A stretch of DNA of 64,000 bases. Source: Cyanidioschyzon merolae (Eukaryota). Below are positions 2,969-38,583 of the stretch, in pieces. The DNA lies in NCBI GenBank assembly GCA_000091205.1, contig AP006502.2, one strand, 5' to 3'. The position numbers and the translations under genes are program-made. Below the pieces are notes generated by a model. The model saw only the letters and a list, made by a program, of their open reading frames with translations, was not told where the DNA came from and ran no database searches. How positions within the stretch are numbered: position 1 is the first letter of the stretch; every line of letters starts with the position of its first letter.

Positions 2969-4486
2969 TCACGACTGCGCGTTTTCGGAGGCCGCGATTG
3001 CAATCCGCGAATCGAAATCCATATACTGAATCATTCGCGGCTTCGGCAGCGTGACAATGCGTCGGCAGGGGAAACAGCGCGTCGAGCGGTCTGCTTCCTG
3101 TTCCGTTTCCGAATCCGCCGAAGCGCCCTCGAGTCGGGCTAGGCGCTCGCTGAGAGCCCGTTCTGCCGTTGTATCCTCTGCCAGGTGCGCATGTATCCAG
3201 CGCAACGTCGCCAGCTGGGTATGGCCCTCCGCCCGAACACGACGACAATCTGCGGCAAAGTCCTCCCCAAACCATTCAAATAGCCGAGATAATTGAATTG
3301 ACGATTTGGCCTGTAACGGAATAAAAACCTGGCGGGGATTCAGAAGAAACGACGTCGTCGCTGCATCCAAGTCGCATTCCCAACGCGACAAATGAACGCA
3401 GCGAGGTAACGGACTCGAACGAGCGCCCCAGTGCAAAACGAAATGCACTCGCGGTTCACAGACGGAAACCAGGAGCGGAGCAAAACGTTCCTGGTCCTTG
3501 CCTAGCGATTGCCGGCACCCGAAGCGAATCACCTGGTCCCGCAAATCCTCCAGCGTCATGAGCTCCCCACACAGGACGAAATGCGTACGACGCAGGAGCT
3601 CCATGGCGTCCGGGAAACGAGACGATTTCGCGGTGCCGCGTAGTTTCAGCTCCTGAATGACCGCCTGGATCACCATTCCGTTGAAGATGTTACAGTAAAA
3701 GGCCAGCTTCTGGCCGTCATCGGCGAGCGAGTCATCAGGACGACGGCACCACGCAAGCAGGGAGGCCAATGTGAGCCACTCGGGAAAACATGGGTCCGCG
3801 AACACCGCCTCGTAGCGTAGACCGTAATCCGCGTAGTCTTCGACGGGAAGCGCGACCTGCAGCAGCGCGTCCAGCACACGCTCAGTCTCGAGGGCCAGGG
3901 TGCGTGCGGGATACCGCGCGCTCCGGCGCAGACTCTCCGGAAGTCGCAACAGCGTATTCAACGAACACTCGCTTTCATTCTGCATAAAGTGGACGACGCC
4001 GTAGTCGGGCGCATCTGCAAGGCCTGCCACGCCCGAGGCTGTCGGATGCCCGTTCACACCGGTTTCCGGTGGCGAGCGCAGAGGCGAGGCCACCAGAACC
4101 CCGTACGCCACCAGTCGCTGCAGAACGCGCTCCAGAGCAGCGTTCTTATCTTCAAGCGTGTCAGTTGCCGAAACACTCGCGTCTTTGACAGGTGACGAGA
4201 AAGAAGTTTCTAGCGCGTCTCGGGTCGCACTGTGCTCATCAAGCCAAGTGGTCTCTTCGTGCAACCAGGTCTCGACGTGTGCGCGCGTGATCCAGGTTGG
4301 CCCTTTACGAGACGAAACTGTCACATGACGTGCAAAACTTGGCAACGACTGACGCACCCCACCGATATTCCCGAATAAAAGTCCGAACACGGCAGCGTGT
4401 AGACGAACGAGGCTCTCGGAGAGAATCGAGGCGCTGTTGCTGGTGCTCGGTGGACGCGGCGTTGACACCGGCGGCGTGCGCATCAC
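2969..4486 (-). CDS. DUF547 domain-containing protein (505 aa)
   Basis: 'AFYCNIFNGMVIQAVI...' and 'EPRVHFVLHWGARSSPLPR' match the DUF547 signature (aFWiNiYN ... prihFALncGa.SCP). The N-terminus is Ser/Thr/Pro-rich. Confidence 0.5.
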   Translation of the reverse strand: MMRTPPVSTPRPPSTSNSASILSESLVRLHAAVFGLLFGNIGGVRQSLPSFARHVTVSSRKGPTWITRAHVETWLHEETTWLDEHSATRDALETSFSSPVKDASVSATDTLEDKNAALERVLQRLVAYGVLVASPLRSPPETGVNGHPTASGVAGLADAPDYGVVHFMQNESECSLNTLLRLPESLRRSARYPARTLALETERVLDALLQVALPVEDYADYGLRYEAVFADPCFPEWLTLASLLAWCRRPDDSLADDGQKLAFYCNIFNGMVIQAVIQELKLRGTAKSSRFPDAMELLRRTHFVLCGELMTLEDLRDQVIRFGCRQSLGKDQERFAPLLVSVCEPRVHFVLHWGARSSPLPRCVHLSRWECDLDAATTSFLLNPRQVFIPLQAKSSIQLSRLFEWFGEDFAADCRRVRAEGHTQLATLRWIHAHLAEDTTAERALSERLARLEGASADSETEQEADRSTRCFPCRRIVTLPKPRMIQYMDFDSRIAIAASENAQS

Positions 4487-6121
4487 AAGTCTACAAGCCT
4501 GGTGTACTGTAGCGATTGCTTGACACTACCAACGCCTCTAAACCGACTGAAAATGTTTCGTAACTACAGAATCGTTTGAAGGCCGCACGTATCTAAACTA
4601 GAAGGGAAAATGAATGTTGACATGCGTGTCGCATTTTCCGTTTCGCGCCGCGACACGCATCTGGGGCACCGACGGATGGACACGTGTCCCCGGCCAGGCG
4701 CTGGATCGCTGGCACCAGGCCTCCGCGGTATATGGCATCGTGGGCTGCCACGCTCTCGTTCGCCGTTTGTTTAGGGAAATAATTTCCGGTATCCATGTAG
4801 GTTGGCTGCGTCTGCATAGATGGATTGGTGCACTGCTTCGTTCCGGGTTCTTGCTTCAATGTGTATTCCCTGTCCTGTGTCTTCTGGGCCCTGATTATTT
4901 TTACATCGAAAGTGTTCAGCGATAGATCACAGCTTACGTTCAGCGTACCGTACGATTCCATGGATATTTCGCTGGACACCGAGGCGCTGGTCGCTTCGGA
5001 CGAACCACACATTACCTGTTATTCATTGAAGTGCTCAAGTCGAGGTAGGGAAAGTGCCTGCGTGCATCGTTGCTTTTGGAATCGCGCGATAGCAAGCTTC
5101 TCACCATCGATTGTCTCGCTAGCGGACGCTCGGTTATACAACCGCACACGAATCTCGTGCTGCTCCACCTCTGTTTTAGGCTCGTATCGTTTACCTACTT
5201 CAGCGCGCGCCTGTGCTCGTGATGTGTGGATGTCGTCCTGGACGCATCGATGGGAATTGTGCAGCTTGGACTCCTGCACTCGTTGAGCGCTTTCATAGCG
5301 GCAGCAGGATTGCGGCCCTTGGAAGCCAAACCACGACTAGCGCCGTAGGCGACAACCAGACCACGTGACATATCGGTTGTTTCGCTTTCCAACTTTACGA
5401 GCAAGTTCAGGAATGCACGCTTCGTACTTCAGTGCAGTTGAAATCGTTACCGACCTCAGCATTGCTTCGTGTACTCCTGTGAAAGATCGTCTGCTTGAGG
5501 CATTTGGAAGGTGATCTGCGCTCTGTATGAAGCGCACAAAAACATTCTCCTGTGCGCGATACGGCGTTGAGCGCATCCAGATGCGTCCGAACGCCGTCGT
5601 TCCTCTTGTTGGCCTCGCTCTTGGCCTCCAGTATACCCAAGTTTGGATCATATCAGTTTAGGAAAAAGTTGATTAGCTTCATCAGCTTTCCTTTTCAGCT
5701 CATTGGTTCCGTCGATTTGATTTAATGCTACGGTGACGGTGACGTCGCATCGAATCTGGGAAGCAGCGAACGTACGCTATCGACAAGATAGCGATGCAAC
5801 GAGGAGCGAGCTCCCCCGGCTTATCACGAGTCCAGCGCCTCTTATTCTCTGCCAGTACCTGCGCATGCCCCGAAGCGTGACGGGAAAGTGTTCGCAGCAA
5901 ACGCTGGTCAATACAGGTCACTCGTCTAAGTGCCACAAGTGTCAGCATTGAGCGATCATCGTCATTGGCACGCGTACGGCGTCAACCAAGTGCACTACGC
6001 AAACGGACCGGTTACGCAGTGACCGCCAGCAGCTGAGCAGTCCCTGAGCCACGCCCATACGTTCTTCGACCTGTCTGCGACGTTTGGCAACCAGCGGGTG
6101 ACGCATCCCGTTGTAGCCTGG

Positions 6122-20608: not shown

Positions 20609-21955
20609 TTAGTATTCTTCCTCTTCCTCGTTGGTGTCTGCTGCGACTTCGATGTAGTCTTTCTCGAGCGCGGCGAGGTCCTCACGCGCTTCGCTAAACT
20701 CGCCCTCCTCCATTCCTTCACCAACGTACCAGTGCACAAAGGCCCGCTTGGCATACATGAGGTCGAACTTGTGGTCGATGCGCGCGAATACCTCAGCGAT
20801 GGCTGTTGAGTTGCTCACCATGCAAACCGCACGCTGCACCTTGGCGAGGTCACCATTCGGAACGACCGTGGGCGGCTGCGAATTGATACCAACTTTGAAA
20901 CCGGAGGGGCACCAGTCCACAAACTGGATGCTACGCTTGCTCTTGATCGCTTTGACAGCGGAATTAACATCCTTAGGCTGGACATCGCCGCGATACATCA
21001 GACAACAAGCCATGTACTTGCCGTGCCGCGGGTCGCACTTGGCCATCATGTTGGCGGGATCGAAGGCAGCTGAGGTGATTTCGGCGACGCTGCCCTGCTC
21101 GTGGTGAGCTTTTTCGGCGGATATAACTGGCGCATAACTCGACAGCATGAAGTGAATCCGAGGATACGGTACTAAGTTGGTTTGATACTCGGTCAAGTCC
21201 ACGTTGAGCGCGCCGTCGAAACGAAGCGATGCCGTCAGCGAAGAGATAACTTGGGCGATGAGGCGATTCAGATTCCGATACGTTGGCCTCTCGATGTCCA
21301 GGGATCGCCGACAGATATCATAGATAGCCTCGTTATCGAGAAGCACGGCCACATCCGTATGTTCCAGCAGCGCGTGGGTGGACAGCACAGAGTTGTAGGG
21401 CTCCACTACAGCAGTGCTGACTTGTGGCGACGGATACACTGTAAATCCGAGCTTGCTCTTCTTTCCATAGTCCACCGATAAACGCTCCAAAAGGAGCGAG
21501 CCTAGACCGGATCCAGTGCCTCCGCCAACTGAGTTGAAGATCAGAAATCCTTGCAGCGCAGAGCAGTTATCCGCCAGTTTTCGTATGCGATCGAGAGCCG
21601 TGTCTACTATCTCCTTCCCTACAGTGTAGTGGCCCCGAGCGTAGTTATTGGCAGCATCCTCACGCCCGCTCATCAGCTGTTCTGGGTGGTACAGCTGGCG
21701 GTAAGGGCCGGTGCGCACCTCGTCTACAACAGAGGGCTCCAAATCCAGGAACAAGCAACGAGGAACATGTTTTCCAGATGAGGTCTCAGAGAAGAAGGTC
21801 CCGAAGGAAGCGTTATTGGCAGCTGCGATCGCCGAGTCGCGGCTAGCCATCGTGCCGTCGGGAAGGATACCATGCTCTAAACAGAAGAGCTCCCAGCAGG
21901 CGTTCGCCACCTGCACACCAGCTTGTCCTATATGGAGTGATATAACCTCGCGCAT
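20609..21955 (-). CDS. TUBA: Alpha-tubulin (448 aa, divergent)
   Basis: '[30 protein letters not shown]', '[25 protein letters not shown]', '[35 protein letters not shown]'; C-terminal 'EEEEEY'. Single uninterrupted ORF. Confidence 0.95.
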
Positions 21956-22254
21956 GATAGATTGTATTCGTTGTGAAGCTTTTCAGACACTAAACACTCA
22001 CCAGAGGCGACTATTCACCGAACCTCCGTCGAATGGTTAGGCAGCACGAAAACTCCAAACCGGAACGCTGAAAAATGGCGCGGGATATTCGAATAGCAGA
22101 CACCTGACGCGTTTCGCCGTTCAAAAATCGAACGCCGCGGCCCGCGGTGTGCAGGAGTGGCGATCGGCGCGCCCTAGACATAACGCCTCCAACTGATGTG
22201 CAGACGCCTCCCAGCCTTTTGGACCGGCCAGCCACTACTGCTTCCAATCTTGTC

Positions 22255-23729
22255 TCATATAGTTCCACCTTGGGAGATTGTCCAACAAAGTTCCCTCTCA
22301 TATACTCTGGAGGGACTTCTTTCCATTACCGCAGATTTCCGTATCTTGATAGCGGTGTTAAAGTCTCGGTTCACAAACTCCATCCGTTTCTTGCCATCAC
22401 TGGTTGTACATACTAATGCAAGTAGCCCTCGAACTTTCGCCCTCCTTTCCATTGGCTCTTCCTTCAGCGGTCCGTACTTTGTGAAATCCTCAGGGCTCCG
22501 CTTACACTTTTCCATCTCTACGCTCTGAAGTGCGCACCTCAGTTCATGGTGTGTATACGACGCACGGAACTCGTCTATTGGTATCATAACGAAACGCCGT
22601 GCACACTCCTTGTACGTTCTTGTCGACGGAGCTGGCGTAGTTCCTTTTTCGGCGCCCAGCGCCCTGTCCCATAGGCTACAACGAGCGTCTGATTTTCATC
22701 CATCTTCAGGGCGCTCAACTGATGGAAAAAGTTCGCGAATGCACGCTGCTTCCCACAGCATAGATTCATTCGCAAACGAGCCCACCGAGGCTTGGTATAC
22801 TCCTCCTACAGTGCACCCCAATGCGCAATGCGAACTTCCATGAATTTCCGAAAAGCTTCAAAGTCCGCTCCTCGGCTAGTCACCTCGCTCAAAGCTTCCA
22901 GGATCTCTTTCATTCCTGAATTCCAAGTCTCGATTTTCTTCCTTGCATTCATTATACCCGATTCTGGGTAATATCTCGCTCTCCACAACCTCAACAGACG
23001 CATGTCTTTCTGACGTAAATTACCGTCGGTCCCATCTTCCGCACGCTTCGGTGCTGCGATGGTTATGATATTCGTGTTTCCGGGGTCCGCGCCAACGACA
23101 AAGTCGTTCTCATGCACTTTCTGCGCCGCAGGACCCGCCTTCTTGGTTTATTCATGCTTCTCCGCGTCAACGACAAGGTCGTTCTCATGCACTTTCTGCT
23201 CCGCTGGACCCGCCTTCTTGGTTTATTCATGCCCCGCCGCGCCAACGACAAGGTCGTCATCCTGCACCCCCTGCGTCGCAGAATCCTCCTCTTTGTTTTC
23301 TTCATGCTCCGCCGCATCAACGACAAGGCCGTTATCCTCCACCTCCTGCATCGCAGGACCCGCCTCCTTCTCATCTTCATGGTTCGCCGAGGGCGGAACT
23401 GGACGATCTTTCTTCAACCGCCGATAGTGTACACACTTGGCTACTCCATCGGTCTCGATCATCCCAGTGAACAACTTTTGCTTGCTCATTCTCAGACGTT
23501 TGAAATTGAAGATATTCTTCCAGTGCGTCTCCCGGTTTTCGCCGGTGAAGTTCTCCCTGCTAACAGTGAACTTCGGGCTGATCTCCTTCATGATGCCGTA
23601 GAGGACTGTGGAGTCGATAGTCACGATATGTGACTTGATGTTGCACAACGAAATGACGTTGAAGCGCTTCTCCATTAGGAAGGCCTTCCGTCTCTCCCAC
23701 TCTTCATTGTTTTCCTCACTCAGCTTCAT
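22255..23729 (-). pseudogene. TnpB/Fanzor-like RuvC nuclease, copy A, split over four or more frames (23729-23223, 23117-22806, 22775-22584, 22587-22255). It is either a pseudogene or intron-interrupted.
   Basis: RuvC-I-like '[16 protein letters not shown]'. Zinc-finger remnant 'IPIDEFRASYTHHELRCALQSVEMEKCKRS', compare TnpB 'VDPkyTSqtCs.CG'. RuvC-III-like 'VNRDFNTAIKI', compare 'RDvNAAiNI'. Continuity across the B-copy break is visible here ('ARKKIETWNSGMKEILEALSEVTSRGADF'). Confidence 0.5.
23094..23380. repeat. Internal ~72-bp tandem repeat (~4 units) within repeat-family copy A; on the minus strand it encodes repeated acidic 24-aa units ('[25 protein letters not shown]'-like)
   Basis: 'gccaacgacaaggtcgttctcatgcactttctgc.ccgc.ggacccgccttcttggtttattcatgc' recurs at ~23094, ~23166, ~23238 and ~23310. 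Copy C has ~2 units (33930-34080) and copy B ~1. Confidence 0.7.
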
Positions 23730-23942
23730 CTCCGCATTGCATTCGAGCTCTCGATCCTAAAACACGAAATAGCGCAGGACGAGGCGATAGTATCTTCCCT
23801 TATCTTTTTTCAACTCTGATATCTTGTCTGTTGGATTCGCCAACCCCAAGATCGCGCGGTGCTCTTGCATAGCCGCACGGATTACAGAAGATTCATTCGT
23901 GCTCCTGCGTGACTTCTTCTTGTCGACGAATTCGATCTCATG

Positions 23943-24311
23943 TTAATGCTTGCGATCCTTCGAGATGCCATTGATAATCGCCCATATTCCTTTGCGAGAG
24001 ATGCCCGGGCAGAGTGCAAATACGGTGCGTATCATGAAACGTTCGAGGTTCATTGTGAAATGGTTCTTCAGGTTCGTGAGGTACTTCATCACTCCGTATA
24101 TGTAAATATCCCAGTAACCCTTGCATCGAGTACTGTTGAAGCTGTAAAAGGGATGATTTTCGTGGAGGCCATGGACTAGCACATTTTCCCGCCGCGCTTC
24201 CTCTGTACCAAGCATCAGCTGACGAATAAAGGTCTTATCGAAAAACTCGTCCGGAATCTCGACCGTTTCCATGTGCATCACATCGCGATACATCTCCCTC
24301 GCCAAATGCAT
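23943..24311 (-). CDS. Conserved small ORF of the repeat family (copy A, 122 aa), function unknown. The antisense frame 23940-24179 is also open and conserved.
   Basis: 'GVMKYLTNLKNHFTMNLERFMIRTVFALCPGISRKGIWAIINGISKD' is conserved with copy B (30660-30962) and copy C (34612-34914). Confidence 0.4.
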   Translation of the reverse strand: MHLAREMYRDVMHMETVEIPDEFFDKTFIRQLMLGTEEARRENVLVHGLHENHPFYSFNSTRCKGYWDIYIYGVMKYLTNLKNHFTMNLERFMIRTVFALCPGISRKGIWAIINGISKDRKH

Positions 24312-24529
24312 CAGTCCTGACGACGCCTTGACAATACTCTTGGATTACGAGTCGACACGTTTTTCGATAGCGTCTCGCAACTTTTCCTTACACGGATCCT
24401 TGATATGTCCAAGAAGAAAGGTTTTTACCACCTTTTCGTCGTACAGTTGTCGTCCTTGCCGCTTACGACGTAGGGCCTCCCCCTTTGGGTTCTCCTTCTC
24501 TTCCTTTTCTTCTGGACTCAGCACTGTTT

Positions 24530-24620
24530 TTTGTTTTTTTTTCTAGCAGCCGGCGACCCTGGGCCTCCAGGATCGTGGACTTGCTTTTTTCATAACTTTG
24601 TTTTTTTGTTTTTTTTTGAA
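24530..24620. repeat. T-rich low-complexity tract flanking repeat copy A
   Basis: 'ttttttgtttttttttctag...tttttttgtttttttttgaaaaac'. Confidence 0.7.
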
Positions 24621-27600
24621 AAACAACGCTCTTTGAACCCTTCTGTTATATATTTCGAAAAAACACTTGACTAGACTTGTTTGAAGTTCTAAACAAAAAT
24701 CAACTGAAAGACTATACTTGGCTACGACCTGAACGGAAATCTGACGTTTACAGCTGAACAACACGCTGCTGGTCAGGATCGCGTTTAACTTCAACGGCGG
24801 CATCCGCGTCGCGTCTCCTGCCTGGCTGAATCTCCCAGGTGCGCAAATCGACAGCACTATTTAGAACAAAGAAAAGAGATTCACGACCAAAAAGCAAGGA
24901 TATAACGGATTCTTTCGTCCTCTACGATAAACGATAAAACAGGGAAAAGTTTTCCGTACTGTCGCAAGTCCTCCTTCCAGGCGGAAAGTTCCGCGAGCCT
25001 GACGAGTCTCCCAGACTCGTGCTTCGTGCTCCCCCCAATGGCAGGTCTTGAAGCGAGACCTCGGCAACTCGTCTGGAATGCAGTTTATTCCAAGATCGCG
25101 AGTGGCTGGAGTGCGTCTGGTCGTCGCCCTGATCGTCGTTTTCTTCCAGCAAATTGCATGGCTCCGTTGCAGGCAGCAAGTCTGTCTGCGCAGTTGCCAA
25201 ACTCCCAGGAGAATGATGAATCCCAGGCCCCGTGTCGGCTGAACCACACCTCGAGCCGATGCCCCCAGTGATATGACAAAGTTATTCTGTTCCCGTGCTG
25301 AATCCGGACCAGCAGTATAGGCTCTGTTGCTGCAGGCGCTCGGGGCAGGCGCTCGGCACACCATAGAACCTACGAAACGACCATCGCATCCGAGAGAAAG
25401 CATGGATAATGGAGCTTAAAGGTAGGGTGGAACATGATAGACACTCTTTCGATCACCAATATCCATCCCGCAATCTAGGAGCCGTGGTCCATGAAAACAT
25501 TCTGGAAAACACAGCGATCTGTGGATTTGAGATTTGCGCATACACTGCCGCGGATACCTTGACGCGTCGCCACGGCGATCGATCGGAACATAGAAAGCAC
25601 AGGTGCCGAAAAGTATCACAAATTGGAAAGGGAACCATTTTCAATCGTTCAAGATTGACCAAGAGAACGACTTGTTGTCGAGTGTTGTCCTTCTTTTTAG
25701 TGGCTACACAGCTGTCGCGGAACCGATAAATCAAGAGGATGCAGCCAAAACCCTCAACGAACGCAGATGCGGTAGCCCAACTGTCTGAGAGCTCCGAATC
25801 ATCGATAGCCGGGCATGATGGACGGCGTGAGGCGTACGATCGAGTAGGATGGCGAGGTCAGGACCCGTCTCGATGCTTTGGGTTCCTTTCCGATGAATGA
25901 GGACATTTTCTGCGCCTTATTTCGAGCGAATATTAGCGTCCAACTAGCGAAATCGGACAATCTCCGGCTGGAGTGCATGACATCGTGCACGGGACGCCAA
26001 CGGTATCCGCAGTGCAGAGACAACAAGCGTGGATTCAAGTGTCTGCTCAATATGTAGGAAATAGAAATGACGAACATGTCGTGTCGTTTGGTCGAGGCCC
26101 GTGGCTCTGGAGGTGCTGCAACGCGCTGAACCTGCACTTTTGCTCCGTCGACCAGCGCGCACAAAGTGTGCAGGAACTGAATCTTTCCATCTCCCATCGA
26201 TGCAATCCAGACGATTTGAGCGCATCACGAGCACAAGGGCACGTTGAGCGTGCTAGACGACAACAGCAACATCGTGAAGCAATGACGAATGCACCAGATG
26301 ATGGAAAGTTAGTTGACCATCCGTTTATGGCGAGGCAGTCGAGGGCAAGAGACTTGCGATGATATGACTCTCCGCGCAACAGTACGCGCCATGACTCGAT
26401 GCGTCGTGACTGGAAGGCTCCCATCACGAGCGAGGGATGTCTCGTGCTTCCCGGGCGGACGTCCGTCGGCTCGGTATCCAGCGAGCTTTCGCAGGAATCG
26501 TTTCGTACCAAGCGTGTGCGTTGTGCTGCGATGCGGAAGACTTGCGCTCACGAAATCAGTGCCTGGGAGAGGGTCATAGATTCCCGTCTGGCTCAAGGCC
26601 CTGGCATGATACGGGGTCACCAATGCGGCAAGGCTGGTGCGTTCTATGCATACATCGGGAACGGTTTCCCCGGTAATCGGTGACCAAGAATGGTGCCATA
26701 TCATTCAGTAGTACTGAATATTGGTATATATAGGCAGAACGTTTCACCGTAAACCTCTGATGGATTCCTAAAGCAACGTCAGACTGAATCGGATCGGGTC
26801 CGTTCAGATAACCCGAGTGTTTACGCTCAACATGAGGGTCTCTTCTCCTTGTCATCAACATGAGCGTTTTGCGCGCTTCCACTGCGAATGCTTCCTTTTT
26901 CTCTCGCTTATATGCGGTTTTCAGTGTGCCGGTCTCTACGATCCCTCCAGCTCCGATGTCAGCTGTTGGGGAGAGTTCATGAGAGCGTGTGAGTCCCGCT
27001 CTCGTCGCTTCCTGCTGTTGTCGACGCATTGCATGCCGAGGCTCAAGTACGATCTACATATCGATTCCCATTTTCACCGTCTTTGTAGATAGCCTTGATG
27101 CGCTCTTCGCAGCGCTGTTCATTCACTGAGCTCAGGTGCTCCCATCTGTCCACCGAGTTTGCTTCTCAGAGCATTGCCAACCTCTATAGTGTTCGAAAGC
27201 TTCGTTCATCTCGTTCGATGCCGTCCTCCGTTTCCGCGCTCGGTGCCGTACCGTACGATCATGAGCAACTTCTGTATGAAAACTACGGCGACTGCGCTGT
27301 CCTCTGCACGTGGGAGCGCGCGCTGTTCCATGAAAGCCCGTACTTGTGGAACGCAATGTTGTCCTTGATGAAACAAGTACCGAGAAGCAAAATCCAGGAT
27401 ACAGAACATGATAACGAATTTCGATGTTCCGGCGCCCCGTTCGAGCTAAGCGATGCTGCACGCTCCACTGGAAACAATCGCTCCGATGAATCTAGTCCGA
27501 GTCCGAGACGCTCTTTTATGCAAAGAGCAGAAATGCGAGCTTCTCGCAACGTATCATAGGAGAAGTATCATGCCGTTGTCGAATGGCGTCTTATCGATGG

Positions 27601-30600
27601 GAACAAAGATGGAAAAATCTGATTTTTTGAACGGAACAGATGATTCGACTTGACAAGTTCCGTGAAGTTTCGGCTTATACTTGTGACCGAATCGTTCACG
27701 GACGACCTCGAGTATCTTTCCTCGTCAACCTAGCGGTGCAAAGGGCTGCACCCATGATTTGCCTTGAAATAAAGAGATCGAATCCCTGAAGGATTTGTGA
27801 TATGCGCGTGTCTCACATAAAGAAAAGAGATGGGCGGAGGCTTTGCCTCATGAATTCGATGATGATATCGGTAATTTCACGAACCTTCGTTCGGCGGCGT
27901 CGCCAAACATCCTGAATCCGGTGACGTAACAAAAGCCAACGGCAAAGCGTCGTAGCGGGCACTTCACCACTGAGAACGCTGAGCCTACGTATGCATCCGC
28001 AAGCCCTTCGTGCAGCACTCGAAATTACAATTCTATACATGTACATACGGTTCGGAAAAAAATCTCAGGGCATGAACAGTGCGACCAGTTCCATGTTTCA
28101 GTTTACTCTGACACGCGTCCTAGTGCAGGTAGCGGGGTGCGAGCTTCAGCGGCATCGTCCTCGCTTGACCAAGAAGCCTTGTAGTTACAGCGGGCGCGCT
28201 CCGATGCCTGAACGTCATCGCGGGCCCATCGGACAAGTCTCGCACTGAACGCCAATAACGCAACCCTTGTATTCATCTTCTGCGTGTTGTGCAGGGGCCC
28301 GCCCTGGCAGCGGTTTCTGCATAACTCGGCACCGCTCAGAGGACCTGTGGCACATCCACGGGACAAGGACATGATACGCGGGCGGCGGGTACCGGTCCTG
28401 GCCCTGGTTCCGCTGACGACGGCACCTCAGCCATAACTTGCGTACTGCGACGACGAAAGCGACGTGCTTGGTGGCACACGCTGCGCGCCATGGTGTCGCT
28501 CTCGGTTCCAAACAGCTGCCGAGGTATACCATCACGAAGCCATGTTGCAGGACGTTCACAGAATGGGGCAGGTACAGCCTGTGCTTCCCGCTCAGTCCAA
28601 GTCGGGGAACGAGTCAGCACACCAATAGGCCCAGCGAGACGACGTGTCGCAGCCGTCACAGACGCTTGTTCTATATCCTCGACAGGCTCATGCCTGGTGT
28701 TGGTACCGCTCAGCGAACCAACAGTTGACGTACTCGAGGAGCGTGTGCGCACACCAGGTCCGGTGCGCGCATCGCCTCTGTAGTGCCATTTTGTGAGCGC
28801 ATTCTCGTGCATCCTCGAGCGATCTCGGGCCTCGACGTGTACGCCTCTTGGAAGGTGTTTGTGAGTCGATATCGAGAAGCTTTGGGGCGGAACAGTTTGC
28901 GTGAAGCTGAAGGAGCGAGCCCTCTGAAGCTTTGCGCTTTGGGGTTTGACTCTCAAGTCACCCGAGATCGTACGTTCGCGAACGCAGATGCACCAGCACC
29001 GCCTCACGGCTACGTTTTGTATTCCGTTTTCGCTGGGCCGGCACGCAACCTCCTCGCGTCGGTCTGGGACCATTTGCGACGTAGTGGCGTGCGGTATGCG
29101 TGGTATCAGGCAGAGAGCTCCTGTAGAGCGAGCACCGTCAGGTCAACGGTCACCAAAGCACACGTTGTCAGTTCCGGGAAACGCGGCCACATGCGCGGAG
29201 CCAGGGACTCGTACGGAAAATGATGTGCTGCTGACGTTGCGAGGAACCCGAACTAGTATTTTTCTTTCACCCTTTGTCCTAATAGTCTTCCTTTTCTGGC
29301 AAATAGTACGCTTTTTTACGAGGGTATTGCTTTTTCTATTGATCTTCTCGGGTGTGAGCGCCTTCTTATGGGTGCGGCGCAGCAGAATGTGGGTGCTGGA
29401 AGTTCGTGACTGTATCGGGAGAATGGCCACGATGCGTTTCCAGAGGCGTCAAATGAGCGTCGTTCCCGTCAGTATCGTAGTGAAAGCCCGGTGCAGGACG
29501 CAGCAGCACGCGCCACAGCCAGCTACAGCAGCCCAGACGCATGACAGGCGGCGTGCGCAAGGGACACCAGCGCCCGAAGTGCCAGAGTGGAGGGATGATA
29601 TTGATTTTTCTTTGACGCCACAGCCGTCTTGCTGGCTACCGTCGACACTGAGCATCGACTGCTCTTCTCTTTGGGCACTGCTGTGGCGCTTGGGTCCGGG
29701 CGACGATTAGCCCAGTGTACGTTAATCAGCACGAATCGATCCATTCGGTGAGCGTACCGGATCGCCAGCCATTGACATGCTTCGACTTGTGAACAAAAGG
29801 AATTTCGGGGCAGTGTGGATTGGGTGCTTCTCTCTGTGACGGGCGCCAAAGCATCTCATCGTTATGCTGTGAAGAGGGCTGTCTCCGAAGATGACCTTTT
29901 CATCGTGCGCTGTCCAGAGGGTTCTGTAGACAGAGCGAACCATGTCAAAGATGATCTCGCTCGGAAAGCCTGGAGAACATCAAAAAGAATTCATAAAATT
30001 TCGCTGGGAATATTTCAGCCCGTACAGCCGTTCCCAATGCTCTGCAGTAAAAGGTTGCCACTGTTCGAACAAGCGTGCAAGCAACGACCTGGAGCAGCGG
30101 CGAGGCTGCGAGCGTTTCAGAGACCCGGAGGCTTGCAGCGCGGGAGTGTGCCATGCGCTCGCTCTGGCGGCAACGTGAGTACCTGTCGAGGCCGTACCGC
30201 GGTGTCGCTTTCTAATTTGCACCGCGAAACAGGAAACGAATGTCATGGGCTTCACTAGTGCATCTGCAACTGACAGCGATGCCAGGCAGCGAGGCAGCTG
30301 GACGCAATCCGGGGCCTTGTTCGGGCGCTGAATGTTTTGTTCGATGACAAAACGTGTATATGGACCATGGATCCCAGGTTGCGTGATGGATGGGCATTGG
30401 CTTTCTGGAAATCACTCTTTATTTGAAGCTCCAAGTTTTAGTTCGAGTACCCGTACTTCCTCTCGGACTTGGGGGTCGTTCTGTACGTTCCATCGTGCGC
30501 CGAGTGCCTGCAGCGCTGCAGCCCGCAATAGCGCCTAAACCGCTGATGCAGATGCTGCACAGAGAGAGAACGGCTTTGCCATGCCACTGAGGGCGTCATA

Positions 30601-30659
30601 TCGCGGAACGCTTCACCAGATACGGAGTCGGAGTACGTAATCATTCTGGGAGCCTAAAA

Positions 30660-30962
30660 ATGGGCAAGCAGACGTCCTCTATGCGGCGGCGCGAATCGAT
30701 ATACCAGGATTACAACCTGAGCAGGGCGATGCCCAGACACAGCGCGTCCGCTCCTAGTCCCAGAATACACTCTGACGGGGCGATGAAGTACCTCACGAAC
30801 CTGAAGAACCATTCGACAGTGAGCCTCGAAGGTTTTATGATACGCGCCGTGTTTGCAGCTCACCCGGGCATCTCTGGCAGAGGGATATGGGCGATTATCA
30901 ATGGCATCACGAACGATTGCCGACATGAAGGTCAGATCGAATTTGTCGACAAGAAGAAGTGA
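30660..30962 (+). CDS. Conserved small ORF of the repeat family (copy B, 100 aa); the antisense 119 aa frame 30654-31013 is also open
   Basis: 'AMKYLTNLKNHSTVSLEGFMIRAVFAAHPGISGRGIWAIINGITNDCRHEGQIEFVDKKK'. Copy C differs at 2 of 100 residues. Confidence 0.4.
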   Translation: MGKQTSSMRRRESIYQDYNLSRAMPRHSASAPSPRIHSDGAMKYLTNLKNHSTVSLEGFMIRAVFAAHPGISGRGIWAIINGITNDCRHEGQIEFVDKKK

Positions 30963-31212
30963 CACAGGAGCACGAATGAAGCTTTTGTGATCCGTGCGGC
31001 TACACAAGAGCACCGTGCGGTACTGGGGCTGGCGAATCCGGCAGCAAAGATATCAGAGTTGAAGAAAGATAAGGAAAGATACTATCGCCTCGCCCTGCGG
31101 TATTTCGTGTTTCTGGACCAAGAACTCGAACGCAAGGCGGAGATGAAGGTGAGAGGGAAAAAATGAAGAGTGGGAGAGACGGAAGGCTGTCCTAATTGGG
31201 AAGCGCTTCAAC

Positions 31213-32397
31213 GTGGTTCCAATGTGCAACATCAAGTCAGATTTCGTGACTATCGACTCGAGAATCCTTTACGGCATCTTCAAGGAGATCAGTCCGGAGT
31301 TCAATGTACGGAAGACAGAGTTCACCGGCGAAACCCGGGAGGCGTACTGGAGGAATATATTCGATTTCAAACGTCTCAATACGAGCAAGCAGAAGATATT
31401 CACGGGGATGATCGAAACCGGTGTAGTAGGCACGTGTGTCCACTATCGGCGGGTGAAGGCGGATCGCCCTATCGTGCCTTCGGCTTTCCCCGTGACGAAG
31501 CGTGAAGATAAGAAGGAGGTGGGCCCTGGAACGTATAGTCCCCTGGATAACGACTTCGTGGTAAGCATGGACCCAGGGAACACGAATATCATAACCATCG
31601 CAGCACCCAAGCGTGGAAAAAATAGTAACAACGGCAACTTATGCCAGAGAGACATTCGTCTTTTAAAGCTCTCGAGAGCTAGAGACTACCGAGAATCGGG
31701 AATAATGAATGCGAGGAAACAAAGTGAGACCTAGAATTCAGGAGTGAAGGATCACCTGGAAGCTATGAGCGAGGTGACGAGCCGCGGAGCGGACTTTAAA
31801 GCTTTTCGGGAATTCATGAAAATTCGCGTTAGTCATTGGGGGACGCTGTGGAAAGAATATTCAAAGCCCTGGTGGGCTCGTCTGCGTATGAGTCTGTACT
31901 GTGGGAAGCATCGTGCATTCGCGAACTTTTTCAATCAGTTGAGCGCATTGAAGGAGGACGAGAGTCAGAAGCTCGTGGTAGCATACGGAGCAGGGCGCTG
32001 GGCGTCGAAAAAAAGGACTACGCCAGCTCCAACTACAAGAACGTACGAGGAGTGCACAAGGGGTTTCGTTACGATACCTGTAGATGAGTTCCGAATGTCG
32101 TATACACACCATGAGCTGGGGTGTACACTCCAGAGTGTCGACATGGAAAAGTGCCAGCGGAGCCCCGAGGATATACAAAAGTACGCAGCGCTGACGGAAG
32201 AGCAAATGGAGAGGGAAGCGAAAGTTCGAGGATTGCTTGCACTGGTGAGTACAGCTACTAACGGCAAGAAACGTATGGTGTTTGTGAACCGGAACTTTAA
32301 TGCCGTTATCAGTATAAGGAGATGTGCGGTGATGGAGACGAGACCTCCGAAGTTGAGAGAATTTTATGGGGCAACCTCTCAAGGTGGAACTATATGA
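31213..32397 (+). pseudogene. TnpB/Fanzor-like RuvC nuclease, copy B, split in two frames (31213-31734 and 31744-32397) by a stop or frameshift. The RuvC-III Asp is replaced by Asn.
   Basis: '[16 protein letters not shown]' (RuvC-I). 'LVVAYGAGRWASKK' lies where RuvC-II is expected but has no Glu. 'VTIPVDEFRMSYTHHELGCTLQSVDMEKCQRS' is a zinc-finger remnant. 'VNRNFNAVISI' is RuvC-III-like with D->N. Confidence 0.5.
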
Positions 32398-32653
32398 GAA
32401 AAAGTTGAAACCAGTAGTGGGTGGCCATTCCAAAAAAGCTGGGAGGCGTCTGCACTTTAGCTGGAGACGTTCTGTCTAGGGCGCGTCGGTCGCCACTACT
32501 GTACGCCGCTGAAGGCAACGTTTTTCTTTCGAAAGGCGTTCGCTGGAGGTGTCCTGCACTTGAAACTGTGGTTCAAGGACACACGGGTGGCTGGTTCCCG
32601 AAACTCGCGTCCAACACTACCGACGAGCGACGCCGTGCTCCCCGAACGAAGCG

Positions 32654-33073
32654 ATGAAACACCGCATAAACCTGCGTAAGCTCGGTCGAGACTCAGCCCA
32701 CCGCTTAGCTCTCTTAAGAAATCTTGTTTCTAGTCTGATTGAGCACGAGAGCATAGAAACGACCGTGGCGAAAGCGAAGGAGTTGCGTCGCGTTGCGGAT
32801 AAAATGGTAACGCTTGGAAAGCGTGGCGACGGTCTGTCCCGAATCCGAGCTCTTGGTTTCGTTCGTGGACCGCATCTTGTGCAAAAACTGTTTCGTACGC
32901 TTGCGGAGCGATATCGTGAACGTAACGGTGGCTATACTCGAGTGATGCGATCGAGGAACCGACGAGGCGACAACGCCCCAATGGCTATCGTTGAACTCGT
33001 TGACTCGCCGAAGGGAGTAATACGCCGGCCACTGGAACACTACCAACGTTCAGAGCAGCGGCAATCAGTGTAA
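32654..33073 (+). CDS. Ribosomal protein bL17 (bacterial/organellar type), 139 aa
   Basis: 'MKHRINLRKLGRDSAHRLALLRNLVSSLIEHESIETTVAKAKELRRVADKMVTLGKRG...NGGYTRVMRSRNRRGDNAPMAIVELVD' aligns along the full length of bacterial L17. No long presequence, as is typical for mitochondrial bL17 (e.g. yeast MRPL8). Confidence 0.85.
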   Translation: MKHRINLRKLGRDSAHRLALLRNLVSSLIEHESIETTVAKAKELRRVADKMVTLGKRGDGLSRIRALGFVRGPHLVQKLFRTLAERYRERNGGYTRVMRSRNRRGDNAPMAIVELVDSPKGVIRRPLEHYQRSEQRQSV

Positions 33074-33872
33074 CACAAACCATTGATCGGTGCATGAGAC
33101 CATGAAACCGCGGGCATGGGAATCTAAAGCGCGGAAGCAAATGGCCATGCCGGTGGCGGCACCTGTGAAATGAAGTTACAGTGATGAATTGGAACGCTGT
33201 ACCCAGCAGGAGAGGTATTCCTGCCCTGTCATCGCTCAAAATTGAGAGCCTCAAAGCTGGTACTCGATGCTCTAGAGTAGAGGGTGTTTTCACTGCTGGG
33301 ATTAACATGGACAGCTTCATTGCCGGGTCAGTTGGTCCACTCTGTGCACTCTCGGCCTGGGCCGTATAAGGGCTTCGAACCGTTTTATGCTGCGGAAAGG
33401 TTGACGCCATCCATAACGCGGCAGCCGTCCACCGTAAAGGATCGCTTCGCGGTAGCGCCGTGATTATGAGGCCGCCACTCCTAGAACTGAGCTCCAAAGC
33501 GCTCGGCAACGCCACCTGCTTATGCATGTGTACGCGTTGCACGTACCGGATCGCCAGCACGAGCTGCATGCTGTCTGGTGTGCTTTCACGTAATGAGCTT
33601 GGAAGACTAGAATCCTGCGTTATCACGGAGGCATGCGCGGCACGCGGACCTCGACACGCTGCACCTCGAACGCGTTTGCGTCTGACAAGTGTTGGGCCAC
33701 GCTGAGGACTTCCGTTCCAATCTCGTAAATCCGTGTCGAATGTGGTAAAACAGCCAACGGATCGCAGAGAGTCTCAACTAAGTGAGCTGGATATTACAAA
33801 AGAGGCTGCTTCCGGGGACACTATTCGAGAATCTCAAAAGTGGCATGTCTTTCTGACGTAATTTACCGTCAG

Positions 33873-34361
33873 TCACATCCTCCCCACGCTTGGGTACTGC
33901 GATGTTACGATATTCGTGTTCCCAGGGTCCGCGTCAACGATCAAGTCGTTATCTTGCGCCTTCTGCGTCGCAGGATCCGCCTCTTCCTTTTCTTCTTGCG
34001 GCACCGCGCCAACGACAAGGTCGTCATCCCGCACTTTCTGTGTCGCAGGATCCGCTTCCTTCTCATCTTCATGCTTCGTCACGGGGAAAGCCGAAGGCAC
34101 GATAGGGCGATCCGCCTTCACCCGCCGATAGTGGACACACGTGCCTACTACACCGGTTTCGATCATCCCCGTGAATATCTTCTGCTTGCTCGTATTGAGA
34201 CGTTTGAAATCGAATATATTCCTCCAGTACGCCTCCCGGGTTTCGCCGGTGAACTCTGTCTTCCGTACATTGAACTCCGGACTGATCTCCTTGAAGATGC
34301 CGTAAAGGATTCTCGAGTCGATAGTCACGAAATCTGACTTGATGTTGCACATTGGAACCAC
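33873..34361 (-). pseudogene. Truncated TnpB/Fanzor-like N-terminal fragment, copy C
   Basis: The first ~95 aa are identical to copy B 31213-31500. It then has two acidic 24-aa repeats and stops right after 'DPGNTNI'. Confidence 0.45.
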
Positions 34362-34611
34362 GTTGAAGCGCTTCCCAATTAGGACAGCCTTCCGTCTCTC
34401 CCACTCTTCATTTTTTCCCTCTCACCTTCATCTCCGCCTTGCGTTCGAGTTCTTGGTCCAGAAACACGAAATACCGCAGGGCGAGGCGATAGTATCTTTC
34501 CTTATCTTTCTTCAACTCTGATATCTTTGCTGCCGGATTCGCCAGCCCCAGTACCGCACGGTGCTCTTGTGTAGCCGCACGGATCACAAAAGCTTCATTC
34601 GTGCTCCTGTG

Positions 34612-34914
34612 TCACTTCTTCTTGTCGACAAATTCGATCTGACCTTCATGTCGGCAATCGTTCGTGATGCCATTGATAATCGCCCATATCCCTCTACCAG
34701 AGATGCCCGGGTGAGCTGCAAACACGGCGCTTATCATAAAACCTTCGAGGCTCACTGTCGAATGGTTCTTCAGGTTCGTGAGGTACTTCATCGCCCCGTC
34801 AGAGTGTATTCTGGGACTAGGAGCGGGCACGCTGTGTCTGGGCATCGCCCTGCTCAGGTTGTAATCCTGGTATATCGATTCGCGCCGCCGCATAGAGGAC
34901 GTCTGCTTGCCCAT
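34612..34914 (-). CDS. Conserved small ORF of the repeat family (copy C, 100 aa)
   Basis: Differs from copy B 30660-30962 at 2 of 100 residues. Confidence 0.4.
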   Translation of the reverse strand: MGKQTSSMRRRESIYQDYNLSRAMPRHSVPAPSPRIHSDGAMKYLTNLKNHSTVSLEGFMISAVFAAHPGISGRGIWAIINGITNDCRHEGQIEFVDKKK

Positions 34915-35469
34915 TTTTAGGCTCCCAGAATGATTACGTACTCCGACTCCGTATCTGGTGAAGCGTTCTGCGATATGACGCCCTCAGTGGCATGGCAAAG
35001 CCGTTCTCTCTCTGTGCAGCATCTGCATCAGCGGTTTAGGCGCTATTGCGGGTTGCAGCGCTGCAGGCACTCGGCGCACGATGGAACGTACAGAACGACC
35101 CCCAAGTCCGAGAGGAAGTACGGGTACTCGAACTAGAACTTGGAGCTTCAAATAAAGAGTGATTTCCAGAAAGTTACTACCCATCCATCACGCAACCTGG
35201 GATCCATGGTCCATATACACGTTTCGTCATCGAAAAAAGACAGATCATTGTGGGCGCAGACTGCCGTGCGCGCTGCCTCGTAGCGCCGCGCCCGGCGCGA
35301 CGCTACGCCTCCGCCACCGAAGGCCATCGGGGCGCAGGCGCCACCGCAGAAGCAAGCCTCCGCCGATCGACTGCCTCAGGTCAACGCGATGCAGCTTTCG
35401 TAGTGTTTTGAGCGGAGCGCTCGCATCCTGTGTAGGTTTCTTTGGCTTTGCACTCGCCTACATAAGGCT

Positions 35470-38400
35470 ATGCCTGGTCAACCTGCCATAAGAGTTCATG
35501 ACACGCTAGGATTCGCCGTCAATGTACGATTCCAGACGGATGTGCTCGGAACGCAGCTTGCAACGCGTGACACAACGTTCGTGCACGTGGCGCTGCAACA
35601 GCAACGGCGACAACGAGCGTATCCGAACCGGTCTGGACGACGACACGTTCACCAGAGCGAACAGCGACTCGACGTGCTCCATCGCAATTCAGCATGGCGT
35701 CCGCAAGGTACAGTTCAACGGAGTTCGTCTCGCATGGAGTTGTGGCTCTCGACGGACGAGGGTGAGGTCTTCGGGCCGGCGCCGGCGTTCTCTGTGAAAA
35801 CAAAGGCCGCACCCCGTACAGAAGTTCCCGGAAAAACGGCATCCGGGAGCACTGCGATGTTGTCGGCCTCGAGGGAACAGGGCTCTGGAGACGGTCGGAC
35901 ACGCGTCGACCGTCGACGCCTCAAGTTGCTCTTTCAGCTGGCCTGCGATGCGGAGTCGAAAGGCCGTTTCGCCGAGGCAGCAAGCCTTGCTCGCCAGTGT
36001 CTTGAACTGGACGAGTATGATGCTCGCTCCTGGTTGTTGCTGGCACGTCTCGAAGCGAGCCTCGTACATGCGGACGATCGCAGCTGCACAGTCAGTGTCG
36101 TCAACGGCACGGAGGGCATCCATGTCTGCACAAGCCACCAGCGTGCACGTAACACTTACCGTCAGGGCGTACTCATGTGCCCCGATTCAGTGCATCTGTT
36201 ACATGCTTGGGCGATGTTCGAATATCGACTCGGGGAGATCGAAACTGCACGGGAGCTCTTCCGCCGCGGTCTTGCTCTAGATCCGGCGAACGCCTACATT
36301 TACCACTCGTGGGGACTGATGGAGTGCCGACGTGGAGGCGTCGAGAAGGCCCAGCAACTCTATGTTGAAGCATCTGCATGCTGCTTGAATGATGCGATTT
36401 GTAGCGCCTGGGCCGAACTCGAGGCACGTGGCGGCCGAATGCGTCTCGCTCGCTGCATTTTCGAGCTCGGTCTGGTAATGCTGCTTCGTGATTTCGCGGA
36501 CACGCTGCATCTTACGGGTTCGGATACCGAAGAGCACGATCCAAATCGAGAAGCGGTCCGAGATATGCCGTACGGCTCGCTTCGCAGTCTCGTCCGGGTG
36601 CTGGTTGCGGAGCACTTGAGGGAGAAGGAACGCCCCCCAGTTTCTGGCTTGTGTGGGAAAGAGCGTGACATGGCGTGCCTATCACCGAACGCTGATGCCC
36701 GGCCTACGCCCGGAGAACGCAGTGAGCGAGCGCTCCGAGCCTTACTTTTGGATTGGTTATCTTGGTATAGAGACGGGCGCAACCCGAATCTGATCCATAT
36801 TCGTCTCACGGTACGCACGCGATCGCGCAGAGGTGATCGATATCAGCTGGCTGCGGACCATTGTGTGCAGTATGCAGACTCGGAGCTCACCCATGGGTCC
36901 ATCACGCGAACACGGGAAATCCTACAGTGGGCACTGGATCTTGATCCCACCAATGTGAAAGTCCTGCTGGCGTGCGCTCGTCTTGATGCACAACGTGGCG
37001 CCCATGAGCGGGCTCGCTCTCTGTTTCGGGCGGCGGAAAGCGCGCTCCGAAAGCGAGGAACTGCAGTTGAACGCATAGACGATGCGCAGAGTGCGAGTCA
37101 CCGAGTTGGTGTCTCTCTCTATACATCCTGGGCAACGATGGAGATGAATTTGAGCAGGCCGGTCGAAGCAAATGCCGTGCTTGAACGAGGGAATGAACGC
37201 TTCCCCCGGAACCACGCCCTCTACCAAACCTGGGCACTAGTGCAGGAAAAGCGGGGACAGCCGGATGCAGCCCGCCAACTCTTGGAACAATCCGTTCGCT
37301 TGCGACCGAACGCGCCTGCCTATGTCGCATGGGCTCTGCTGGAGGAGCGCGAGGGCCATTTGGACACGGCACGTGAGCTCTTCGAAGCCGCTCTGCAAGT
37401 GGATCCGAGCCACAGCGCCACCTACAATGCTTATGGTCGTCTCGAGGCTCGTGCCGGGGACCTCGAAAAAGCTCGCCGTGTTTTTCTTCGTGGTCTGCAT
37501 GTCCAACAGGCACCCTGCATCTATCATGGATTCGCCCTCGTCGAGCTACGCTACGGGAATGGTATCCGACGAGCAGAGGAGATCCTTTTGGAAGGAATCG
37601 CGCAGAAAAGCGACAGAAGTATGTTTCTATGGCACACACTAGGTGCTCTCGCTTTTCAACAGAAAAAGTATGAAAAAGCGCGAGAGATTTTCGCCCAGGC
37701 GCTTCAGATCTACCCCAGCAATAGTCGATTGCTTCTCGGAGCGGCGCTCTCGTACGCAGCAGAGGCAACGGCTTTAGACGCGGAGAGGCCGCGCCAGTTA
37801 TTTCGGCGCGCGCTACAGGAGGATTCCTTTCACGGACATGCATGGCAATGCTGGGGAGTATTCGAGAGTCGCCTTGGCAACGTGGATGCTGCCCGGTTAC
37901 TCTTTGAACGCGGCGTTGAGCGATGTCCGTTCCACGTACCACTTTGGCAGGCGTACGCGCTGCTGGAGAGCACCGCAGGGAATATCCGCAAAGCTCGCAT
38001 CCTCTTTGAACGCGGCATGCAGCTAGAAAGCGACCACGTTCATCTCTTGAATGCTTACGCATGTATGGAAGCACGAGTCGGCAACTATCAAAAGGCACAG
38101 TGTTTACTGGAACGGGCGCTGCGCATCGATCCTGGGCATGGTGCAACCTGGAACGCGCGTGCCTTGCTGGAGCTGCGCAGAGGGAACCAGCACGGCGCTC
38201 GCGAGGTGCTAGAGGAGGGCCTCGGAAAGGACGCCAACCACGCGCCGCTGTACCGAACCTATGCGCGTCTGGAGTTAGCGCTTGGCAACGTTGAACGAGC
38301 ACGGCTGCTCATTGAACAGGGCCTTGTCAGGGATGCCAGCGATTCCGGCCTGATCCAGCTGCGCACTGATTTGCAGAAGCCGTCAGCAGTTTTCACAGCC

Positions 38401-38583
38401 GGCGCTTTTGAACGGTGGGCAGATCTATCACCGCGAGAAAGCGCCGGAAGCATGTCCGTACTTGCACGTCTTCAAGCAGAACTGTCCGAAGCATCAATCT
38501 CAACGACAGATTTTGATCTTTTCGCCATTCAGTCTGTGGACGATGCGCTGCAAGAGGGCCATTCCTCGATCGATGCACGCTAG
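35470..38583 (+). CDS. HAT/TPR (half-a-TPR) repeat protein, similar to plastid RNA-maturation factors of the Mbb1/HCF107 class. The ORF is 1037 aa, but the true start may be an internal Met (e.g. 'MELWLSTDEG' around 35736).
   Basis: About 15 tandem ~34-aa helical repeats with the HAT pattern (W..WA..E...G....AR..FERAL ...), e.g. 'SWLLLARLEASL', 'LLHAWAMFEYRLGEIETARELFRRGLALDP', 'YIYHSWGLMECRRG', 'ALYQTWALVQEKRGQPDAARQLLEQSVRLRP', 'YVAWALLEEREGHLDTARELFEAALQVDP'. Confidence 0.7.
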   Translation: MPGQPAIRVHDTLGFAVNVRFQTDVLGTQLATRDTTFVHVALQQQRRQRAYPNRSGRRHVHQSEQRLDVLHRNSAWRPQGTVQRSSSRMELWLSTDEGEVFGPAPAFSVKTKAAPRTEVPGKTASGSTAMLSASREQGSGDGRTRVDRRRLKLLFQLACDAESKGRFAEAASLARQCLELDEYDARSWLLLARLEASLVHADDRSCTVSVVNGTEGIHVCTSHQRARNTYRQGVLMCPDSVHLLHAWAMFEYRLGEIETARELFRRGLALDPANAYIYHSWGLMECRRGGVEKAQQLYVEASACCLNDAICSAWAELEARGGRMRLARCIFELGLVMLLRDFADTLHLTGSDTEEHDPNREAVRDMPYGSLRSLVRVLVAEHLREKERPPVSGLCGKERDMACLSPNADARPTPGERSERALRALLLDWLSWYRDGRNPNLIHIRLTVRTRSRRGDRYQLAADHCVQYADSELTHGSITRTREILQWALDLDPTNVKVLLACARLDAQRGAHERARSLFRAAESALRKRGTAVERIDDAQSASHRVGVSLYTSWATMEMNLSRPVEANAVLERGNERFPRNHALYQTWALVQEKRGQPDAARQLLEQSVRLRPNAPAYVAWALLEEREGHLDTARELFEAALQVDPSHSATYNAYGRLEARAGDLEKARRVFLRGLHVQQAPCIYHGFALVELRYGNGIRRAEEILLEGIAQKSDRSMFLWHTLGALAFQQKKYEKAREIFAQALQIYPSNSRLLLGAALSYAAEATALDAERPRQLFRRALQEDSFHGHAWQCWGVFESRLGNVDAARLLFERGVERCPFHVPLWQAYALLESTAGNIRKARILFERGMQLESDHVHLLNAYACMEARVGNYQKAQCLLERALRIDPGHGATWNARALLELRRGNQHGAREVLEEGLGKDANHAPLYRTYARLELALGNVERARLLIEQGLVRDASDSGLIQLRTDLQKPSAVFTAGAFERWADLSPRESAGSMSVLARLQAELSEASISTTDFDLFAIQSVDDALQEGHSSIDAR

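Follow-up and report, generated by a model that had tools for sequence, protein, structure and literature searches.

Decayed copies of the Fanzor1 transposon CMe-1A in a nuclear region of the red alga Cyanidioschyzon merolae

INTRODUCTION

The transposon CMe-1A was described in Cyanidioschyzon merolae by Bao and Jurka (2013, Mobile DNA 4:12; PMC3627910) as a family of about 150 copies that lack terminal inverted repeats and share about 80% identity with a 3,169-bp consensus. Its target-site duplication was given as undetermined and its classification as unknown. It encodes CMe-1, a Fanzor1 protein of 734 amino acids in a single exon (PMC3627910, supplementary file 1). Here, we analyze a 64,000-nucleotide stretch of C. 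merolae DNA (contig AP006502.2 of assembly GCA_000091205.1; the window), for which an earlier note, made from the sequence alone, had proposed a family of three degenerate repeats related to TnpB and Fanzor, its eukaryotic homologue. We are almost certain that the three repeats (copies A, B, and C) are mutationally dead copies of CMe-1A, whose sole gene encodes CMe-1. The existence of this family, with its host, copy number, and homology to TnpB, has been in print since 2013, and Fanzor biochemistry was published in 2023 and 2024.

The Fanzor1 of Spizellomyces punctatus, SpuFz (PDB 8GKH and 9CEU-9CEZ), has been shown experimentally to be an omega-RNA-guided DNA endonuclease. It resembles CMe-1 in its fold over about 600 residues (template modeling [TM] score, 0.62 to 0.64), in the DPG motif, in the alternative Glu within (I/V)DE(F/Y)xTS, and in the RD of RuvC-III, but sequence identity is only about 15% and the four zinc-ribbon cysteines are all missing from CMe-1. 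Furthermore, the SpuFz element is bounded by 33-bp terminal inverted repeats and TA target duplications, whereas CMe-1A has no inverted repeats. ISDra2 TnpB (8H1J and 8EXA), of the prokaryotic ancestor type, has the RuvC fold and the C-terminal RDxNAA of CMe-1 and differs in its length (about 400 amino acids), canonical RuvC-II Glu, zinc ribbon, and Y1 TnpA partner in IS200/IS605 elements. According to Jiang et al. (2023, PMC10530073), all Fanzors have Gly or Pro at the position of the canonical RuvC-II Glu and use an alternative Glu located about 45 residues farther downstream. This residue and the DPG motif are the Fanzor signatures, TnpB having D-hydrophobic-G instead (Yoon et al. 2023, PMC10711439).

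The closest intact relatives found for CMe-1 are the volvocine Fanzor1 proteins (VCa-1 of Volvox, PNH08370.1 of Tetrabaena socialis, and KAJ9522957.1 of Haematococcus), with 33 to 45% identity over 600 to 700 amino acids. They belong to another phylum and include many intact open reading frames (ORFs), and VCa-1 is devoid of the zinc-ribbon cysteines, as is CMe-1. The Helitron2-type carriers CRe-1, CRe-2, and CRe-3 of Chlamydomonas (Bao and Jurka 2013) have a Fanzor1 gene, no transposase, no inverted repeats, and hairpins at their ends. They insert after TTTT. The resemblance of CMe-1A to them is suggestive, as nearly all of its copies follow a T-run and may end in a hairpin.

RESULTS

Three copies of CMe-1A in the window

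Comparison of the window with itself by BLASTN found three related segments, as the earlier note had described, with A (22144-24097, minus strand) about 80 to 82% identical to B and C. The published consensus DNA and protein (supplementary files 2 and 3 of PMC3627910) were then mapped onto the window by BLASTN and TBLASTN. The consensus matched A, B, and C at 82 to 87% nucleotide identity along its whole length (per copy, 82 to 87% for A and 77 to 87% for B), which fits the published family of about 150 copies at about 80% to the consensus, and the translated motifs of the copies agree with the 734-amino-acid protein. The window copies and the published CMe-1A belong to the same family in the same genome and show no difference in kind. 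Compared with the consensus, they are single decayed insertions, B and C having a private internal deletion and A an expanded 75-bp repeat. The proteins encoded beside them are exact matches to those of C. merolae 10D (BAM83431.1, BAM83433.1, and BAM83434.1). The coordinates of all features are collected in Table 1.

Copy A is a complete element of 3.4 kb and a full-length pseudogene. It extends about 1.3 kb beyond the 22.1 to 24.2 kb first assigned to it. In a global alignment with the consensus frame, it shows five in-frame stops and five frameshifting indels of 1 to 2 bp (at consensus positions 915, 955, 2631, 2968, and 3063), together with a 213-bp in-frame insertion produced by expansion of the 75-bp repeat. 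This repeat encodes a 25-amino-acid acidic linker located just upstream of RuvC-I. Its number varies from one in the consensus and in B to 1.9 in C and 3.8 in A, with more in a metagenomic homologue (P0006).

In copy B, an internal deletion of 976 bp (consensus 423-1398) has removed the first 161 codons, and the remainder contains two in-frame stops (one of them a TAG at 31732-31734) and two frameshifts caused by a 2-bp and a 5-bp deletion. Copy C is composed of positions 35232-34803 joined to 34799-33825, ends at consensus position 2301, shortly past RuvC-I, and has one stop and the 2-bp deletion in common with B. The two copies lie in inverted orientation and share 98.4% identity across the 1,193 nt of the 5' 1.2 kb (B 30336-31528 versus C 35238-34046). 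This likeness breaks off inside the 75-bp repeat, beyond which they are only 72% identical. Their deletion junction was checked against 80 related metagenomic loci and proved unique to the pair. Since the junction is private and the likeness ends in the 75-bp repeat, B and C are linked by local gene conversion or duplication and do not represent a spreading deletion subfamily. A propagating nonautonomous derivative was considered and ruled out, as the junction was seen only in B and C among all 81 sources searched. The outer flanks of the two copies differ, and the pair brackets the mitochondrial L17 gene, a pattern suggestive of ectopic gene conversion, with two old insertions on either side of a host gene as partners.

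Table 1. Positions of the CMe-1A copies, their motifs, older relics, and neighboring genes in the window
Feature	Position	Strand	Evidence or remark
Copy A, full-length CMe-1A (consensus 7-3169)	22115-25504	-	BLASTN/TBLASTN; 84% identical to consensus
Copy A, Fanzor1 ORF remnant	about 22177-24539	-	
Copy A, 75-bp in-frame tandem repeat, 3.8 copies	23087-23369	-	Tandem Repeats Finder, self-BLASTN
Copy A, RuvC-I DPGNTN (catalytic Asp and Fanzor-type DPG)	23070-23087	-	Translation of ORF 22806-23117
Copy A, alternative RuvC-II Glu (E of IDEFRAS)	22570-22572	-	Translation of ORF 22255-22587; invariant E490 column
Copy A, RuvC-III Asp (D of VNRDFNTAIKI)	22363-22365	-	ORF 22255-22587; aligns with RD of algal Fanzor1
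Copy B, 5' segment (consensus 1-422, noncoding 5' region)	30342-30771	+	BLASTN with consensus
Copy B, 3' segment (consensus 1399-3169, Fanzor amino acids 162-734)	30775-32538	+	
Copy B, DPG	starts 31570	+	
Copy B, alternative Glu	32086-32088	+	
Copy B, RuvC-III D->N (VNRNFNAVISI)	32293-32295	+	
Copy C (consensus 1-422 and 1399-2301)	33825-35232	-	Same internal deletion as B
Copy C, 75-bp repeat, 1.9 copies	33929-34074	-	
Zinc-ribbon position (CMe-1 amino acids 606-670)	A 22380-22560; B 32095-32290		
Ancient Fanzor1 relic, 34% amino acid identity to CMe-1 508-689, several stops	4982-5530	-	TBLASTN; family profile, six-frame, E 2e-22
Ancient, heavily deleted Fanzor1 relic (fragments of profile positions 42-613)	47667-48728	-	TBLASTN, family profile
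Weak ancient relic beside copy A, 27% amino acid identity, stops	25737-26264	+	TBLASTN E 1e-7; family profile marginal
Short possible relic, 42% over 50 amino acids after VDEFRTS	55581-55730	-	TBLASTN E 6e-6 only; missed by family profile
Alpha-tubulin gene, intronless	20609-21955		Exact match BAM83431.1
Mitochondrial L17 gene, between B and C	32654-33073		Exact match BAM83433.1
Tetratricopeptide repeat protein gene	35470-38583		Exact match BAM83434.1

Decay and selection

An uninterrupted ORF of about 734 codons is absent from A, B, and C, and no active protein can be made from the local copies, in agreement with the pseudogenization first suspected from their stops, frameshifts, and truncation. 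The small ORF taken at first for a separate gene (30660-30962, 34612-34914, and 23943-24311) corresponds to amino acids ~95 to 294 of the same 734-amino-acid Fanzor frame. A functional reading of the copies, in which stops and frameshifts would be spliced out as small introns or bypassed to give an active Fanzor nuclease, could appeal to copy B, which is open in one frame for 393 codons except for the single TAG, and to ratios of nonsynonymous to synonymous substitution rates (dN/dS) below 1 between copies. We nevertheless judge it very improbable. The consensus ORF is a single exon (PMC3627910), and each break in the copies is a stop substitution or an indel of 1 to 5 bp relative to it, so that the small introns raised in the earlier note are ruled out. 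Moreover, B has lost codons 1 to 161 as well as the Asp of RuvC-III, and the five stops and five frameshifts of A sit elsewhere than the breaks of B.

The dN/dS ratio was 0.40 to 0.45 against the consensus, 0.35 between A and B, and 0.73 for the recent B/C pair. Low values between old copies are the residue that selection on an active master lineage before insertion would leave. Recent or ongoing constraint, suggested at first by protein-level conservation between copies, is thus not upheld, given the ratio of the B/C pair, the breakage of every copy, and the explanation of values of 0.3 to 0.45 by selection before insertion. In the metagenome sample (the 80 best loci out of 343 metagenome matches), none of the 80 loci contained a complete ORF, the longest open frame (L015) having 772 open codons that cover amino acids 133 to 731.

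Assignment to Fanzor1

The mutationally dead copies of CMe-1A were placed within Fanzor1 by sequence profile and by fold, confirming a TnpB/Fanzor family in the nuclear DNA of a eukaryote. A profile of the family aligned with the Fanzor1 proteins of Chlamydomonas, Chlorella, and Volvox at an hhalign probability of 98.5% (E 3.6e-15), with VVAYG, VDEFRTS, and NRDFNAAIN falling onto their counterparts in the algal proteins. In a hidden Markov model (HMM) search of the PDB, a profile restricted to close relatives (A1) gave noise, which was resolved once the published algal Fanzor1 sequences were added. The mixed profile matched SpuFz (8GKH, E 3.5e-13) and also PpFz, GtFz, mimivirus L79, ISDra2 TnpB, and Cas12f.

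For the structural comparison, homologue P0002 was modeled with AlphaFold 2 from an alignment of 83 diverse relatives, an earlier run on a shallow alignment of 20 sequences having been unusable (predicted local distance difference test [pLDDT], 35). The model was confident (pLDDT 84.5; predicted TM score, 0.79), and its sole low-confidence stretch was the acidic linker (residues 258 to 303). In a Foldseek search of the PDB, its top matches were SpuFz structures 9CEY and 8GKH (E 2.8e-13; TM scores, 0.64 and 0.62; about 610 columns), followed by PpFz and GtFz and then by TnpB and Cas12, the Fanzor structures having E values of 3e-13 to 2e-9. Precomputed matches to the Pfam domain DUF8286 (PF26935) lie in the N-terminal Fanzor1 stretch (window positions 23943-24311, minus strand; metagenomic locus L001, 365-733). 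This domain of unknown function is therefore the N-terminal part, on the REC side, of proteins of a Fanzor1 family.

Catalytic residues and zinc ribbon

The RuvC-I motif DPGNTN was found in all three copies; the 11-residue string quoted for it in the earlier note is present in A and B, and C reads DPGNTNIVT before it ends. The Glu of VDEF lies 33 residues downstream of the Gly of AYG in CMe-1, and both are invariant among the 83 relatives. In the same set, the Asp of DPG is invariant, its Pro and Gly are invariant or nearly so, and the Asp of RD is nearly invariant. With these three acidic residues conserved, the family consensus has a complete Fanzor-type triad. VVAYG and the alternative Glu are both kept in A and B. 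For RuvC-III, the consensus and A read NRDFN(A/T)AI, and the change of D to N is specific to B, as had been noticed from the letters alone (VNRDFNTAIKI in A and VNRNFNAVISI in B). The string LVVAYGAGRW, reported for both copies, occurs in B, whereas A reads LVVAYGTGRW. Its interpretation as catalytic decay fails, as the canonical Glu is replaced in all Fanzors (PMC10530073) and the alternative Glu is retained in both copies.

All four zinc-ribbon cysteines of the TnpB/Fanzor TNB domain, expected between RuvC-II and RuvC-III, are absent from CMe-1, from the 83-member consensus, and from VCa-1. In CMe-1, TSYTHHELGC...LLALVSTT stands where algal Fanzor1 has TCxxCG...VCxxC. The strings quoted from this region are present (IDEFRASYTHHELRC in A and VDEFRMSYTHHELGC...KCQRS in B). 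They had been called a zinc-finger remnant, but the ribbon is missing from the whole family and has not degenerated in these copies in particular. Screens that demand CxxC...CxxC (as in PMC10711439) would overlook the CMe-1 clade.

Termini

Independent insertions share a sharp 3' end (...GAAAGGCG), and the sequence beyond it is usually TT(T/C)G. In front of the published 5' end (CGATGAC...), nearly every copy among A, B, C, and the metagenomic loci L005-L084 has a T-run (TTTTY). The candidate end sequences are CGTTTTC-CGATG-ACAAAACG (5') and CGTTTTTC-TTTT-GAAAGGCG (3'). The T-run is able to pair with ACAAAAC at element positions 6 to 12, and some variants are compensatory. This 5' hairpin was paired in 63% of cells, compared with 49 to 57% in slid controls, statistics that are only suggestive. 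The 3'-terminal hairpin was 84% paired, with no double changes. No convincing target-site duplication was found by eye in the paired flanks. The published consensus may lack about 7 bp of the 5' end, and the ends of the element may be hairpins of the Helitron2 or IS200/605 kind.

Relics and relatives

Four older or possible relics of the CMe-1 lineage were also located (Table 1), which brings the insertions in the window to at least five to seven, of differing ages. These older relics indicate a long history of insertion and decay of the family in the genome. An exhaustive search yielded about 1,200 relatives, many of them intact, with 600 to 700 amino acids and 33 to 45% identity (proteins P0140-P0285). 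Intact relatives include proteins annotated as "hypothetical" in Tetrabaena socialis and Haematococcus lacustris, and the distribution over a red alga and green algae may point to horizontal spread. Among Joint Genome Institute metagenome contigs (Ga0078972, Ga0080006, Ga0207433, and others; loci L001-L004 and L005-L084), the same layout of tubulin gene and copy A recurs, with an identical tubulin protein. Public metagenomes hold hundreds more CMe-1A copies, and close relatives of strain 10D are well sampled there.

DISCUSSION

The results above identify the window repeats as dead members of a published Fanzor1 family. It is important to consider the observations that weigh against this identification or against the activity that it would imply. 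Scans of the frame-corrected copy B and of the N-terminal ORFs with Pfam and NCBIfam gave no significant match, and PF07282 matched only in relatives, below threshold. The HMM check proposed in the earlier note failed with the general domain libraries and succeeded with the Fanzor1 profiles; the structure check was positive, with the P0002 model best matching SpuFz, PpFz, and GtFz. The C4 zinc ribbon, a defining motif in the 2013 paper, is missing from the family. Conservation of the 3' untranslated region is no higher than that of synonymous sites, and RNAalifold finds just one short hairpin.

The failed Pfam matches are explained by the divergence of the family and its lost zinc ribbon and do not reflect a lack of homology. 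Despite the missing ribbon, the CMe-1 family is Fanzor1. Its membership is retained on account of its other features and the whole-protein fold match, and of VCa-1, which was accepted in 2013 and is likewise without the cysteines.

Absence of the canonical RuvC-II Glu and of the zinc-ribbon cysteines, together with dN/dS values of 0.3 to 0.45, might also be expected of a domesticated host gene, derived from a Fanzor, catalytically inactive after loss of RuvC-II and the zinc finger, and under selection. We hold this to be highly unlikely. Loss of the canonical Glu, with an alternative one downstream, is universal in active Fanzors (PMC10530073), and the downstream Glu is invariant in the family. 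Furthermore, the family is multicopy, with about 150 copies on record and 343 matches in metagenomes; its insertion sites are dispersed, its ends are defined, and all three local copies are disrupted. A Fanzor2/IS607-type or prokaryotic TnpB insertion, acquired by contamination or recent horizontal transfer, has next to no probability despite the weak PDB profile matches to mimivirus L79 (a Fanzor2) and bacterial TnpB, since the best sequence and fold matches are three Fanzor1 structures along the full length including the N-terminal half, the 3.2-kb element contains neither a serine recombinase nor TnpA, it sits between exact C. merolae nuclear genes, and its relatives occur in green algae.

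For CMe-1A as a Fanzor1 element, a mechanism can be proposed by homology. The intact 734-amino-acid CMe-1 would bind an omega RNA (fRNA) encoded at the 3' end of the element. With this RNA as guide, it would cut double-stranded DNA at a single RuvC site, the putative residues of which are the D of DPGNTN, the Fanzor-type alternative E of VDEFRTS, and the D of NRDFNAA. Concerning the RNA, an Rfam search of the window gave no match, and conservation by codon position in the ORF tail revealed no overlapping RNA constraint. RNAalifold applied to the 3'-terminal 150 nt of 35 copies produced a weak consensus structure (-3.5 kcal/mol). A compensatory GC<->CG swap (13 versus 12 sequences) is seen only in the short hairpin that lies beyond the stop codon. 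A long hairpin of the consensus, GCCGCCA...TGGCGGC, was rejected as being without covariation support.

A broader and rather doubtful proposal, to which we give a low probability, is that CMe-1 belongs to a zinc-ribbon-less Fanzor1 clade of a red alga and volvocine green algae and that CMe-1A is a hairpin-ended element that inserts at T-runs, has its true 5' end about 7 bp upstream of the published one, and is mobilized in trans by an HUH-type (Helitron2-like or IS200/605-like) enzyme.

These results show that the motif reading of the earlier note was sound, while the finding itself matters little as a discovery. They correct a common error, in which the RuvC-II substitution of Fanzors is read as inactivation. 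Fanzor specialists could find three points of interest: the zinc ribbon is missing throughout the family, the termini are T-rich and resemble hairpins, and many relatives in green algae are intact. If the proposed zinc-ribbon-less clade is real and an intact copy exists, its product would be an RNA-guided nuclease that has no zinc finger and comes from an acidophile living at 42 to 45°C.

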